Below are positions 61,681 to 64,000 of a DNA stretch of 64,000 bases, piece by piece; positions within the stretch are counted from its first letter, which is position 1; every line of letters starts with the position of its first letter. The DNA is taken from NCBI RefSeq assembly GCF_013167455.1, contig NZ_CP038328.1. One strand, written 5' to 3'. Position numbers: made by a program. This DNA is from Escherichia coli O157:H7. Its GTDB lineage: Bacteria > Pseudomonadota > Gammaproteobacteria > Enterobacterales > Enterobacteriaceae.

Positions 61681-64000
61681 CAATAAGATCCTCTTTAAAG
61701 GAAAATACTGAGACTGTAGAAATGAACAGTAAAGTTTGGGGGAGGCTGAAAAAGATAATCACTTTCTTTAAAAAGTGATTTATGTTTCTGTAAAAAGCCC
61801 GTAGGTATCAACTGCGGGCTAAATTTTCCCTTGATGCTGGTTTTGTCTTTTATCTAAAAAATGCCAGTCTTCACGTTGCTTGTTCCAGCATTAAAGATGT
61901 ATGTGCTGACTTTTTCGCCTTTGAAAGAAACTGTCAGAGATTTAGTTTGTGAGTCTGCGCCACCTGCAAGCAGTCCCACAACGGGGATGAAAGAGGTTGC
62001 TTTGGACTGGCTGTTATACATAGTGTATGACCATTGTTCTTCACCATCGATCAAAGAACGGCTGTCAGGTTCACCGAACGATGCTAACACGTCCTGTTTT
62101 GTAGTTTTGCCTTTAACAATTTTGGTTTTCACACTTTCCTGCGTCTCATTTTTCAATGACTGGTTGCCTACTGAAGAACAACCTGCCAAGGTCAGAAAAA
62201 CGAATCTATATGAGAGTTTTTTGTACCTGAGACTAAATCGCCCTCCCAATGCCCTAGAGAGCGTCTGTTATCGATATTTCGGGAACGTTCGTGAATTGGT
62301 GTTCCGTTCACTATGTTAATCGTACCTCTTTCGCCTTTGCGGGTATGACGCCTGCCATGGCGAAGGCTATGCGACCGTCGCAGATGCTGTATATTCAGGT
62401 GGTGTAGCGCTTCACGGCTACGAAAGTACAGCGTTTTATAAATTGTCTCAGGTGATATTCGCAGCGTTTTTTGACGTGGTTTTGTTCGCCTTAACCATCC
62501 TGATATTTGCTCTGGAGACCATTTCATCTCCAGCTTTTCCAGAACAAGCTTTCGCAATGGTAAATTTTGATCCAGTAAGCACGGTTTTGGCCTTTTCGCC
62601 ATTCTGTTGGCTCGGTTATTAGCATCAACAGCTTTGTAATAGCGTCTGCCCCGATTACGCTGAACTTCACGTGAGATCGTCGAAGGACTGCGATTCAGCG
62701 CAGTAGCTATCGCACGAATGCTCATTTTGGCTGACAAACCAGCTCGTATCTCCTCGCGCTCAGACAGTGTCAGGTGAGCTACAGCCCGCTTACGCTCATG
62801 GGGTTTTATGCCGCCAGTATCCCTTAACATAGTGAAGATCGTTCCGGGTTTTGAACCCAGGATATTCGCTATTTCACTGAAGCCTGTTCCGTTCTTCCAT
62901 AGTTCAAAAACAGAGGCTTTTTCCTCTGCTGTAAATGTTCGTCTCATTCAAAAAACCTCCGCAACCCCATGTTTTCACATAACTGTTGCGTTGACCAATT
63001 GAATCTACAGTGGTCTGTTTTAATATTTCTATTTCTATTTCTATTTCTATTTCTATTTCTATTTCTATTTCTATTTCTATTTCTATTTCTATTTGTTGTG
63101 ATTTTTTCTTTAGTTCATGTATTTCGATTTGTTTCTGAATTATCGGGGGTAGTGTCTTCCCTTTTCCCTGAGGCTTATCATGCAGTTATTTTCGCCATCT
63201 TGGTATTGTGGAAATACCGACATCCATAGCTTTGGTGAGCTCTGTTCAGGTGGCCAAATTCAGAAAACCATTACGGAGGAAGAAGGCGATGGCTAAACCA
63301 GCGCGAAGACGATGTAACCGTAAAAGAGAAGATTTAACTGTTAAAAGGATATTTGAGTTACTAAGTTTCGATAAATCTACCGGGGTATTTAGATGGAAAG
63401 TTCCCACTCAGGGAAGGATAGCATTAAATAGTGTTGCTGGAGCTTTTGATTCCAACGGTTATTCAATGATCATGATAGATGGGCGTAGATATAAAACTCA
63501 CGTCTTAGTTTTTTACATAACTCATAATCGTTGGCCTGCTGGTCAAATTGACCACGTTAATGGAATTAGGACCGACAATAGGCCAGAAAGTTTAAGAGAA
63601 TGCCTGCCAATAGAAAATTCAAGAAATATAAGGATCCGAAAGAATAGCAAATCAGGTTGCAGAGGGGTTACTTGGCACAAACGACAGAAAAAATGGAATG
63701 TTAGGCTAGGATTCCATGGCAAGAGTAAACACTTCGGATGCTTTGATGATCTGGAGTTAGCGGTACTAGTTGCTGAAGAAGCCCGAGATAAGTATTACGG
63801 TGATTTTTCCGGCAACGAAAGGAGCACTTATGCGAATCTATCGAAGGAAATGTAAATGTTGCAATGAATGGTTTATACCAAAATATCAAAATCAATATTG
63901 GTGTAATGAGATTTGTGGAACCAAGATAGCACTCGAACGACGAAGTAAAGAACGCGAAAAAGCGGAAAAGGCAGAAAAGGCAGCAGAGAAGAAACGACGA

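Follow-up and report, generated by a model that had tools for sequence, protein, structure and literature searches.

A putative HNH-AP2 homing endonuclease cassette with a replacement ninG 5′ end in lambdoid prophages of Escherichia coli

Homing endonucleases have been studied mostly in virulent phages, including T4, T5, SPO1 and ICP1. In the T-even phages, the free-standing homing endonucleases SegG, encoded at gene 32, and MobE, encoded at nrdA/nrdB, cut genomes that lack the endonuclease, and recombinational repair is accompanied by co-conversion of the flanking sequence. A mobE insertion in Aeromonas phage Aeh1 is said, in work that Friedrich and colleagues reportedly published in PNAS in 2007, to split nrdA into two polypeptides that reassemble. 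For SegG the source is Liu et al. 2003, as cited in PMC10448857, and for MobE PMC2790892. Homing endonucleases with HNH_3 and AP2 domains belong to group 2 of the His-Me finger nucleases (PMC5714182), the HNH-AP2 class being credited to Magnani et al. 2004, as cited in PMC10448857. In Salmonella phage epsilon34, gene 31 encodes a putative HNH homing endonuclease formed as an in-frame eaE′-HNH fusion (PMC2629481), and the HomeR "home-and-rescue" gene drive is presented in outline in PMC7968924 as a synthetic, Cas9-based system for eukaryotes. No published account of an HNH gene in ninG came to light in literature searches.

The window analysed here, a 64,000-nt stretch of E. coli O157:H7 contig NZ_CP038328.1, ends within such an arrangement in a prophage nin region. 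The arrangement is probably a free-standing homing-endonuclease gene of the HNH_3 plus AP2 (I-HmuI-like) type, situated 29 nt into ninG (rap) and accompanied by a ninG front end likely to be immune to cleavage; cleavage and homing are predicted properties of the encoded protein. Elements of this kind are already known, and the cassette is a neat instance of them.

Cassette boundaries

The features of the locus, in window coordinates, are as follows.

63272..63317 (+), left homology arm: the final 17 nt of lambda-type ninF and then ninG nt 1-29 (63289-63317), including the ninG Shine-Dalgarno and ATG
63289..63855 (+), putative HNH-AP2 endonuclease ORF: 188 aa plus stop; RefSeq CDS "HNH endonuclease", WP_001108083.1
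63318..63913 (+), mobile cassette: 596 nt, 37.9% GC, comprising the HNH body, the ninG′ ribosome-binding site and the divergent ninG 5′ module
63490..63606 (+), HNH_3 nuclease domain: residues 68-106; Pfam PF13392, E 1.8e-8
63589..63591 (+), codon 101, AGT (Ser): Asn (AAT) in 21/21 aligned homologues and in most cassette copies
63655..63801 (+), AP2-type DNA-binding domain: residues 123-171; Pfam AP2, E 9.6e-4 (borderline), and Foldseek
63819..63824 (+), Shine-Dalgarno AAGGAG of ninG′, read directly: 5 nt before ATG 63830, within the HNH ORF 3′ tail
63830..63913 (+), divergent AT-rich ninG′ 5′ module: 28 codons, 84 nt, 28.6% GC, always HNH-linked
63914..64000 (+), conserved ninG body (right homology arm): cut by the window end; matches empty-site alleles

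The left and right homologies to empty-site alleles were placed by anchored alignment; homology ends after 63317 and resumes at 63914, where identity restarts at TGTGGAACCAAGATAGC. The left arm matches intact ninF-ninG junctions save for one polymorphic base (G63286 in the window; A, C or T elsewhere). About 45 nt of conserved sequence lie on this side, and in every background the cassette begins and ends at exactly the same base. Two viral contigs, one with the HNH gene (L046) and one without it (L107), show no differences over 1075 nt to the left and 1410 nt to the right (at least 2485 nt), their sole difference being 596 nt, corresponding to window 63318-63913, in place of 64 nt of lambda-type ninG. 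The pair proves that a segment has undergone gene conversion, without showing which way the conversion went or giving the nuclease a role in it. The preliminary description of this DNA had an endonuclease inserted into the 5′ end of ninG: alignment with uninterrupted ninG alleles bears out the location and sets its limits, with homology ending at 63317 on the left and resuming at 63914 on the right, whereas the simple insertion gives way, on the evidence of the isogenic pair, to a replacement of 64 nt by 596 nt.

A search of the cassette ends for target-site duplications or terminal repeats yielded short chance repeats only, and an apparent "direct repeat" (CGAAGRMRATGTAA) at both ends arises simply because the ninG stub and ninG′ have homologous RR(R/K)C codons. 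An intron-encoded gene was considered and discarded, as Rfam returned no family at E ≤ 1 in L001:3900-5500. An intron or intein is further contradicted by the stop codon of the HNH ORF and by a ninG′ that is read in a different frame, has a Shine-Dalgarno and ATG of its own, and is complete alone. The HNH proteins of cos phages that are of the HK97 gp74 type are encoded next to the terminase and portal genes at the end of the late region; this identity was also rejected, since all the contexts examined place the present gene in the early-right nin region, flanked by ninF and ninG.

The endonuclease and the ninG allele downstream

The HNH ORF, read from the sequence, extends from ATG 63289-63291 to TAA 63853-63855 and is preceded by GGAGG (63275-63279), which is ninG's own Shine-Dalgarno. 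Over its first 29 nt it does not differ from the start of intact lambda-type ninG, such as that of HK544, and its first nine codons (MAKPARRRC) are ninG's own, as the preliminary description had recognised; the core of the endonuclease family starts at about residue 15, and single-domain or short HNH homologues begin opposite query residues 14-16. ATG 63289 is the sole start common to all genomic contexts of the HNH gene, with no further in-frame ATG, GTG or TTG before residue 62. The 215-aa ORF given earlier exists as a mechanical ORF from GTG 63208, but the RefSeq coding sequence comprises 188 aa from ATG 63289. RefSeq carries annotation for both an HNH endonuclease and NinG, and both calls are right.

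In a profile search, the protein matches phrog_99 "HNH endonuclease" at E 1.4e-68 over residues 5-187, and an HMM scan against Pfam recovered both the HNH_3 and AP2 domains listed above, in agreement with the switch to HNH/AP2-like sequence first noticed by eye. The HNH family numbers 96,601 representatives, with 37,454 library representatives at E ≤ 1e-10. NCBIfam gave no match for either the HNH protein or NinG, and a PDB sequence search with the HNH protein gave nothing beyond one weak AP2 match. The AlphaFold2 model (pLDDT 89, the first 10 and last 18 residues being of low confidence) contains the beta-beta-alpha elements E86-89, E102-105 and H107-111, and its best PDB fold match in Foldseek is I-HmuI (1u3e; probability 0.99, E 4.2e-3, TM 0.36-0.39), the low TM of which may result from an extended two-domain shape. 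The AP2 domain matches the folds of AtERF1 (1gcc; probability 1.00, rmsd 1.4 over 51 columns) and of the TEM1 AP2 domain. Across an alignment of 22 sequences, six residues (H71, D88, H89, R103, N110 and N113) never vary, and the window protein has all of them; D88-H89 and R103 fall within the HNH_3 domain, and N110 and N113 just past it (63616-63627). The window protein keeps the catalytic and metal core residues of the beta-beta-alpha-metal motif, namely the D-H general base and the downstream Asn. Taken on sequence and modelled fold, the ORF is predicted to encode an HNH-AP2 endonuclease of the homing-endonuclease type.

Asn101 is found in 54 of 55 comparable cassette ORFs, and only L028 shares the window's codon; at the level of contigs, the window (Ser101) allele occurs on 228 and the Asn allele (WP_001108084), the majority form, on at least 1000. 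Judging from its spacing, column 101 ("NLR") probably corresponds to the central Asn in the H-N-N motif. This feature of the H-N-N/H motif is present in the element generally and absent from the window copy, which may be catalytically impaired.

ninG′ starts at ATG 63830, in frame +1 with respect to the HNH ORF, and the two overlap by 26 nt. The C-terminal 14 residues of the HNH ORF are an unmodelled read-through across this start. The complete ninG′ of the source genome (L001:4731-5342; 612 nt, 203 aa) has the same length as the intact NinG of HK544, and its protein matches phrog_171 NinG/Rap at E 3.3e-115 over residues 5-202, which makes it a full-length member of the NinG/Rap family (PF05766). 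The spaced N-terminal cysteines are kept, with Cys 8, 10/11, 25 and 29 aligning with C9, C14, C28 and C32 of the lambda type. Its 5′ module is identical to the lambda-type sequence at 54 of 93 nt (39 differ) and has 28.6% GC against 50.5%, and its MR... start resembles the natural NinG variant of phage Emek (MRKVRRRC...). Alleles that share the ninG body have just two 5′ modules, with no intermediates; the lambda-type one hardly varies among diverse phages. The AT-rich NinG N-terminus occurs on 48 viral contigs, each of which also has the HNH gene, and no occurrence of this front end without the HNH gene was seen.

Going by its coding sequence, ninG′ is a complete gene with a foreign, AT-rich, homologous set of first 28 codons and not the leftover of a split gene; since these codons run in frame into the resident ninG body, the locus continues to encode a full-length NinG. 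The frame, the overlap with the HNH 3′ end and the ATG at 63830 all stand as previously proposed, but the "remaining" ninG sequence with a rescue start is instead a divergent complete allele. The accompanying suggestion that ninG is left potentially expressible is well founded, the downstream gene being intact and, with its own AAGGAG and ATG, predicted to be independently translatable.

A donor of the AT-rich module was looked for and not found. A search with the first 40 NinG′ residues as query matched E. coli fragments only. A word-index protein search with the HNH ORF returned only copies of at least 89% identity (one a 104-aa fragment) and relatives at about 41%, and an exhaustive search of representatives for HNH relatives outside the cassette found none above 47% identity. 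The two closest short HNH homologues (P0071 and P0126) have no ninG neighbour in their contexts.

Distribution and competing explanations

The cassette is present in 537 of 5426 complete E. coli genomes (about 10%), with up to three copies per genome, and its carriers include O157:H7, other STEC and inducible Stx1 phages. Most carrier genomes have a single copy, with further partial query matches in the same records; if those matches are empty-site ninG alleles, spread within a lysogen is not automatic. Across loci the cassette is 98.8-100% identical, while identity in the rest of ninG goes down to 87.5% and the outer flanks are unrelated. It occurs in seven left-flank and eight right-flank clusters (95% identity), most of which are shared with cassette-free alleles. 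Presence or absence at a precise site in otherwise identical DNA, together with a near-identical cassette in unrelated flanks, fits an invading mobile gene and supports the preliminary proposal that a free-standing, presumptively homing endonuclease has invaded ninG.

The best phage matches of the window are Stx1 phages; identification as an Stx1 prophage was rejected, as the annotation describes a defective remnant by ssrA with no stx after Q. The remnant is degraded, with no replication or head genes in the stretch read. Given the defective remnant and Ser101, the window copy may be a relic, and it is probably a non-spreading, possibly weakened one.

In the proposed mechanism, the HNH body, fused in frame to the ninG ribosome-binding site, ATG and first nine codons, would be transcribed along with the nin region in lytic growth or induction. 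Where a second lambdoid genome is co-resident or co-infects, the enzyme would nick or cut its well conserved lambda-type ninG 5′ sequence, at a site predicted to fall within ninG nt 30-93 or at the nt 29/30 junction, and recombinational repair off the cassette-bearing genome would then copy the cassette in by way of the homologies at ninF and the ninG start and in the ninG body. The re-coded 5′ module would render carriers immune to their own enzyme. More tentatively, the cassette could be a natural "home-and-rescue" drive of temperate phages, in which the nuclease hijacks the translation start of its target and carries a re-coded, AT-rich, cleavage-immune 5′ end, such that each homing event kills the target site and restores a functional NinG. 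The variety of NinG N-termini (lambda-, Emek- and cassette-type) would then in part be a trace of this conflict, and AT-rich re-coding might evade a GC-preferring AP2 domain. This extension is a conjecture that we regard as plausible but somewhat more likely to fail than to hold.

It is unlikely that the HNH-ninG′ block is instead a passive mosaic module, shuffled by ordinary Red, RecA or Rad52-like recombination at conserved flanks, with an endonuclease that is inactive or irrelevant to spread. Lambdoid nin regions are notoriously mosaic, as are the flanks of the cassette; natural NinG N-terminal variants without an HNH gene exist, that of phage Emek being one, and among the few alleles compared by eye no flanking variant was seen to be fixed together with the cassette. 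Degenerate copies also occur, through a frameshift (L047), an IS3 insertion (L006), N97T, P83T and the Ser101 of the window; however, the ORF is undisrupted in 54 of 56 cassette copies and catalytic residues are retained. Passive shuffling is likewise at odds with boundaries that are exact to the base in all backgrounds when no more than about 45 nt of conserved sequence lie on the left, with a cassette far more uniform than its flanks, as fits a recent sweep, and with a protein class for which homing is the known role (PMC10448857, PMC5714182).

Retention of the nuclease for ends other than self-propagation, either to damage competing lambdoid phages and prophages (marker exclusion, competition) or as a DNA-binding regulator, appears distinctly improbable. 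Carriage of an undisrupted ORF by about 10% of complete E. coli genomes would suit such a use, the ratio of about 12 synonymous to about 12 non-synonymous variants among cassette ORFs hints at some purifying selection, and co-option of homing-endonuclease domains is known (discussed in PMC10448857). A regulatory role, however, has no pointer in these data, and tight linkage to a re-coded copy of the interrupted gene is what a homing element needs. Exclusion by cleavage shares its first mechanistic step with homing, so that the two are hard to tell apart.

The lost native N-terminus and borrowed start, the 14-residue read-through at the C-terminus and the Ser101 copy in a prophage remnant might suggest a scar of old illegitimate recombination, a dead chimeric ORF yielding no active protein and merely labelled HNH by pipelines, but this is very improbable given that the borrowed start is ninG's own with a good Shine-Dalgarno, that the ORF is uninterrupted and nearly unchanged in hundreds of genomes and in inducible Stx1 phages, and that it retains the invariant family residues in a confident structure model.

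As a probable homing element with a replacement ninG front end, the cassette offers a clean and abundant case in lambdoid prophages, with exact boundaries and an isogenic empty site available. Should the enzyme prove active, it would act as a directed force on the mosaicism of the nin region and on exchange among prophages that share a pathogenic E. coli host, and it would represent a natural nuclease that carries a re-coded rescue segment of its own target gene.

Comparison with known systems

With the I-HmuI group the cassette protein shares an HNH_3 domain with a D-H...N...N core and, at the C-terminus, a modular DNA-binding domain, which in the cassette is AP2. The gene for I-HmuI lies in a group I intron and the enzyme has other DNA-binding modules, whereas the cassette has no intron-like RNA match, and sequence identity in the structural alignment of the two proteins is 14%.

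The likeness to SegG and MobE of the T-even phages lies in an endonuclease gene beside or within a conserved phage gene, with neither intron nor intein, in a spread that would proceed via cleavage and recombinational repair with flank co-conversion, and in carriers that differ from their targets in the adjacent gene sequence. Unlike these systems, the ninG cassette resides in a temperate lambdoid phage or prophage, its ORF continues in frame from the first nine codons of the target gene, and its putative nuclease is of the HNH_3 plus AP2 type rather than GIY-YIG (Seg) or Mob-type HNH. Its presumed resistant segment is a compact, wholesale-divergent module of 84 nt, in contrast to the scattered polymorphisms of the T-even systems.

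Gene 31 of epsilon34, a P22-like lambdoid phage, is similar in that an HNH sequence has entered a resident gene (eaE) and forms an in-frame fusion with the N-terminus of that gene. It differs in its locus, the early left operon, and in its HNH lineage, which is related to enzymes of Lactobacillus phages; for epsilon34, unlike the ninG cassette, no replacement 5′ module restoring the interrupted gene is described. The mobE gene of Aeh1 is likewise a free-standing HNH endonuclease gene inside a coding region, where the host gene reportedly stays functional. Aeh1 nrdA is said to be made as two polypeptides, whereas ninG is reduced to a nine-codon stub upstream and a complete, one-piece NinG is encoded downstream.

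The resemblance to HomeR, as that system is outlined in its description, does not go beyond analogy: in both, a nuclease gene is accompanied by a re-coded segment of its target that presumably resists cleavage. In the cassette, unlike HomeR, both the resistance of this segment and the position of the target site are predicted ones. Because the re-coded segment travels with the nuclease, as HomeR is presented, conversion would come without cost to the function of the gene.

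Two overlapping reading frames at the 5′ end of ninG

The window closes with 712 nt in which direct reading shows two overlapping ORFs on the positive strand. It matches strain ECP19-598 of E. coli O157:H7 at 100% identity, and the RefSeq CDSs there are exactly the same two: an HNH endonuclease (567 nt) and a recombination protein NinG (612 nt).

Features of the HNH/ninG locus (window coordinates)
63275-63279, + strand: Shine-Dalgarno GGAGG of the HNH ORF, 5′ of ATG 63289
63289-63855, + strand: HNH ORF (ATG 63289, 188 codons, stop 63853-63855)
HNH ORF residues 68-106: HNH_3 domain (Pfam, E 1.8e-8)
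HNH ORF residues 123-171: AP2 domain (Pfam, E 9.6e-4)
63318-63913, + strand: cassette, with boundaries from the L046/L107 comparison
63830, + strand: ATG of ninG′, the downstream ninG (AAGGAG 63819-63824, 5-nt spacer; +1 frame; 26-nt overlap with the HNH ORF; the ORF leaves the window)
63830-63913, + strand: divergent ninG′ 5′ module, 84 nt, sharing 54/93 positions with the lambda-type 5′ end

The first ORF had been described as 215 aa in length, which is a mechanical extension to GTG 63208, but its endonuclease content is borne out: Pfam finds both the HNH and AP2 domains that had been proposed, and phrog_99 (HNH endonuclease) is matched at E 1.4e-68 in PHROGs. The ORF does open with the authentic NinG N-terminus MAKPARRRC, its first 29 nt being identical to the intact ninG start of HK544 and many lambdoid phages, and the 17 nt before the ATG are the end of ninF, identical to intact lambdoid alleles except for one polymorphic base. 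Homology to ninG ends at 63317, with unrelated sequence from 63318. There is no in-frame ATG, GTG or TTG before residue 62, and the HNH ORF therefore relies on the RBS and ATG of ninG itself; short single-domain family members (160-180 aa) start opposite residues 14-16, so the native endonuclease start has been lost. In the first ORF, the start of ninG is thus joined to an HNH-AP2 endonuclease as a chimera.

An exhaustive search returned 96,601 family representatives, every one with at most 47% identity to the HNH ORF, and the residues invariant in a 22-sequence family alignment (H71, D88, H89, R103, N110 and N113) are all kept. The AlphaFold2 model is confident (pLDDT 89) except at its two ends: the 10-residue stub derived from NinG, and the final 18 residues, where the ORF reads through the ninG′ start. 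Among PDB folds the HNH homing endonuclease I-HmuI matches the model best (prob 0.99, E 4e-3), and plant AP2 domains come next; the combination of HNH and AP2 is an architecture known among homing endonucleases (PMC5714182; PMC10448857, which cites Magnani et al. 2004).

NinG coding sequence resumes in another frame at ATG 63830, overlapping the endonuclease 3′ end, as the preliminary description had noted. The product is 203 aa in the source genome, the same length as HK544 NinG, and matches phrog_171 (NinG/Rap) at E 3.3e-115. Ordinary lambda-type ninG sequence begins at TGTGGAACCAAGATAGC (63914); the 5′ module has a GC content of 28.6% versus 50.5% for the lambda-type 5′ end, and still encodes the spaced cysteines and the EWF...NQ.WC...CGTK pattern. 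NinG of Salmonella phage Emek has a natural 'MR' start and a divergent N-terminal module without any HNH gene. The 63830 start is best regarded as native to a divergent ninG allele, which would have arrived with the endonuclease. On this reading the proposed 'rescue start', which has its own Shine-Dalgarno, opens a complete NinG with a divergent AT-rich 5′ module rather than being an improvised restart of a truncated gene. Just past the window end, a 9-nt in-frame duplication in O157 ninG (EKA repeat; codons ~45-50, ~4880-4890 of the source-genome locus L001) offsets the 3-codon-shorter N-terminal module and restores the 203-aa NinG; in other cassette carriers this duplication is missing and ninG is 603 nt.

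Cassette boundaries, backgrounds and variation

Two IMG/VR contigs, L046 with the HNH gene and L107 without it, are identical across 1075 nt on one side (left) and 1410 nt on the other, and between these stretches 64 nt of L107 (AAACGATGAATG...CTCTCCAGAG, ninG nt 30-93) are swapped for 596 nt in L046. Alignment with uninterrupted alleles thus locates the insertion point, although the event is a 596-for-64-nt replacement rather than a simple insertion.

By megablast, 537 of the 5426 complete E. coli genomes carry the cassette, with identity of 99% or above in nearly every case and at most three copies per genome. Carriers include serotypes O157:H7, O145, O111:H8 and O103, non-STEC isolates from humans, chickens and soil, and the inducible Stx1 phages AU6Stx1 and SH2026Stx1. 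The match is always annotated as an HNH endonuclease, with NinG next among all matches listed except PK8241 (IS3 in between). In O157, ESBL15 and O111 the left flank is AT-rich non-ninF sequence that runs up to the terminal 17 nt of ninF; several types of intact ninF allele precede the cassette in VCSW5, PK8241 and many viral contigs.

Identity between pairs of distinct haplotypes (51 loci)
Cassette: 98.8-100%
Remainder of ninG: as low as 87.5%
Outer flanks: unrelated, at 50-73%

When flanks are clustered at 95%, the cassette falls in 7 left-flank and 8 right-flank clusters, 5 and 6 of which, respectively, also hold cassette-free alleles. A back-translated pattern of the AT-rich NinG N-terminus matched 48 viral contigs, all 48 with the HNH gene, and the 132 loci with a ninG body anchor have only two 5′ modules, the cassette type and a nearly invariant lambda type, with no intermediates between them. 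Polymorphisms 8-20 nt 5′ of the ATG still segregate among carriers, so left conversion tracts can be very short. Variants of the HNH ORF are ~12 synonymous versus ~12 non-synonymous (IS3 junction artefact left out). Decayed copies were found in L047, where an indel frameshifts the HNH ORF (7 stops), and in E. coli PK8241 (L006, 3549-4762), where an IS3-family element between the HNH ORF and ninG′ alters the HNH C-terminus.

In O157, O111, ESBL15 and the Stx1 phages, the unrelated DNA replacing ninF (40% GC; window 63100-63271; also in loci L003 and L004) stops 17 nt short of the ninG ATG. In this sample, all 30 loci with this left flank have the HNH cassette and 0 lack it. The ninF stop codon also terminates a small ORF (63180-63296). 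In E. coli VCSW5 (L005, ~2971-2999), the ninF stop codon overlapping ninG codons 2-3 (ATGGCTAAA) is mutated to CAA (ATGGCCAAA), lengthening the annotated NinF to 231 nt and remaining synonymous in the HNH/ninG frame. Just 5′ of the locus lies a perfect (TATTTC)11 microsatellite (63024-63089), which behaves as a VNTR with 4 to 14 copies in loci sharing this left flank.

The window copy and its prophage remnant

The window locus is located within a degraded lambdoid prophage adjoining ssrA. Its gene order runs from two tyrosine recombinases through a DNA-binding protein, hypotheticals, an IS30 fragment, HNH, ninG, a phosphatase and Q to a holin, truncated lysozyme, IS66, IS1203, tail-fibre fragments, espW and espM2; neither replication genes nor head genes were seen across the 47-kb stretch read. 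The HNH allele has Ser101, a position that is Asn in 21/21 aligned homologues and in 54/55 comparable cassette ORFs, L028 being the only other retrieved locus matching the window codon. Ser101 occurs on 228 contigs versus at least 1000 for Asn101. By its spacing (H89 - 12 - N101 - 9 - N110), residue 101 probably corresponds to the central, structural Asn of the H-N-N motif. The window copy may thus be a weakened relic.

The tandem tyrosine recombinase genes and a 543-aa 'DNA-binding protein' (~55020-59174, +) lie at the left end of the remnant, immediately following a truncated ypjA/ehaD autotransporter gene (50327-54397). They look like a three-gene recombinase module rather than lambda int-xis, and PADLOC gave no matches for this module. 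A 432-aa ORF annotated as hypothetical (60480-61778, +) contains 30 Pro-Glu dipeptides in a run, with (CCAGAG)30 at 61500-61679, and over residues 151-284 weakly matches PADLOC model PD-Lambda-4_B (E 1.9e-7). This ORF may represent a moron with a role in defence, within the AT-rich DNA that stands in place of ninF. The IS30-family transposase gene (62192-62947, -) is an annotated pseudogene truncated at its C-terminus, and adjoining it is a small BamE-domain lipoprotein gene (61854-62249, -), distinct from chromosomal bamE 17 kb away.

Proposed homing, alternatives and known systems

The cassette has fixed boundaries and comprises an HNH-AP2 ORF fused to the ninG start, plus a substitute ninG 5′ end that brings its own RBS. 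It occurs in many backgrounds, and DNA that is otherwise the same is found both with and without it. The preliminary observation is confirmed, and its interpretation as a free-standing homing endonuclease that has invaded a conserved prophage gene and left it potentially expressible is supported with refinements, homing itself being inferred. Based on the free-standing phage homing endonucleases SegG and MobE (PMC2790892; PMC10448857), the HNH gene would be transcribed with the nin region in lytic growth, and its enzyme would nick or cut the conserved lambda-type ninG 5′ sequence of a lambdoid genome that shares the cell and lacks the cassette. Carrier-templated repair would then copy the cassette, with ~45 nt of homology across the ninF end and ninG start as the left arm and the ninG body as the right arm, and the divergent 5′ module would shield carriers. 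AP2 domains reportedly prefer GC-rich sites (PMC10448857), and it may be speculated that the AT-rich re-coding is an escape from a GC-preferring AP2 domain.

The main alternative is that the cassette is passively exchanged as an ordinary mosaic module, with which the occurrence of degenerate copies is consistent and on which the L046/L107 pair is silent as to what started the conversion; however, the boundaries are exact to the base, the cassette is more uniform than its flanks, the ORF and catalytic residues are preserved, and the protein class is of the HNH-AP2 homing-endonuclease type. Domestication of the nuclease for competition or regulation is less likely, as is a dead fusion scar. An intron or intein is excluded, with no Rfam family at E ≤ 1 (L001:3900-5500) and ninG′ having its own Shine-Dalgarno and ATG in another frame; gene position excludes a terminase-associated HNH.

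The HNH and ninG genes of the cassette are already routinely annotated, and no description of the ninG cassette was found in the literature. As a homing element it would work like the free-standing endonucleases of T-even phages, and its enzyme belongs to the HNH_3/AP2 group, of which I-HmuI is the structural type. One earlier case has been noted in which an HNH homing endonuclease is joined in frame to the N-terminus of the gene it entered, in the P22-like phage epsilon34 (PMC2629481). By analogy, the cassette would be a natural counterpart of engineered 'home-and-rescue' designs. What is unusual is the hijacked start codon, together with a 5′ end of the target gene that is re-coded wholesale and travels with the endonuclease; these features make the cassette a good experimental system while leaving its category as a known kind unchanged.
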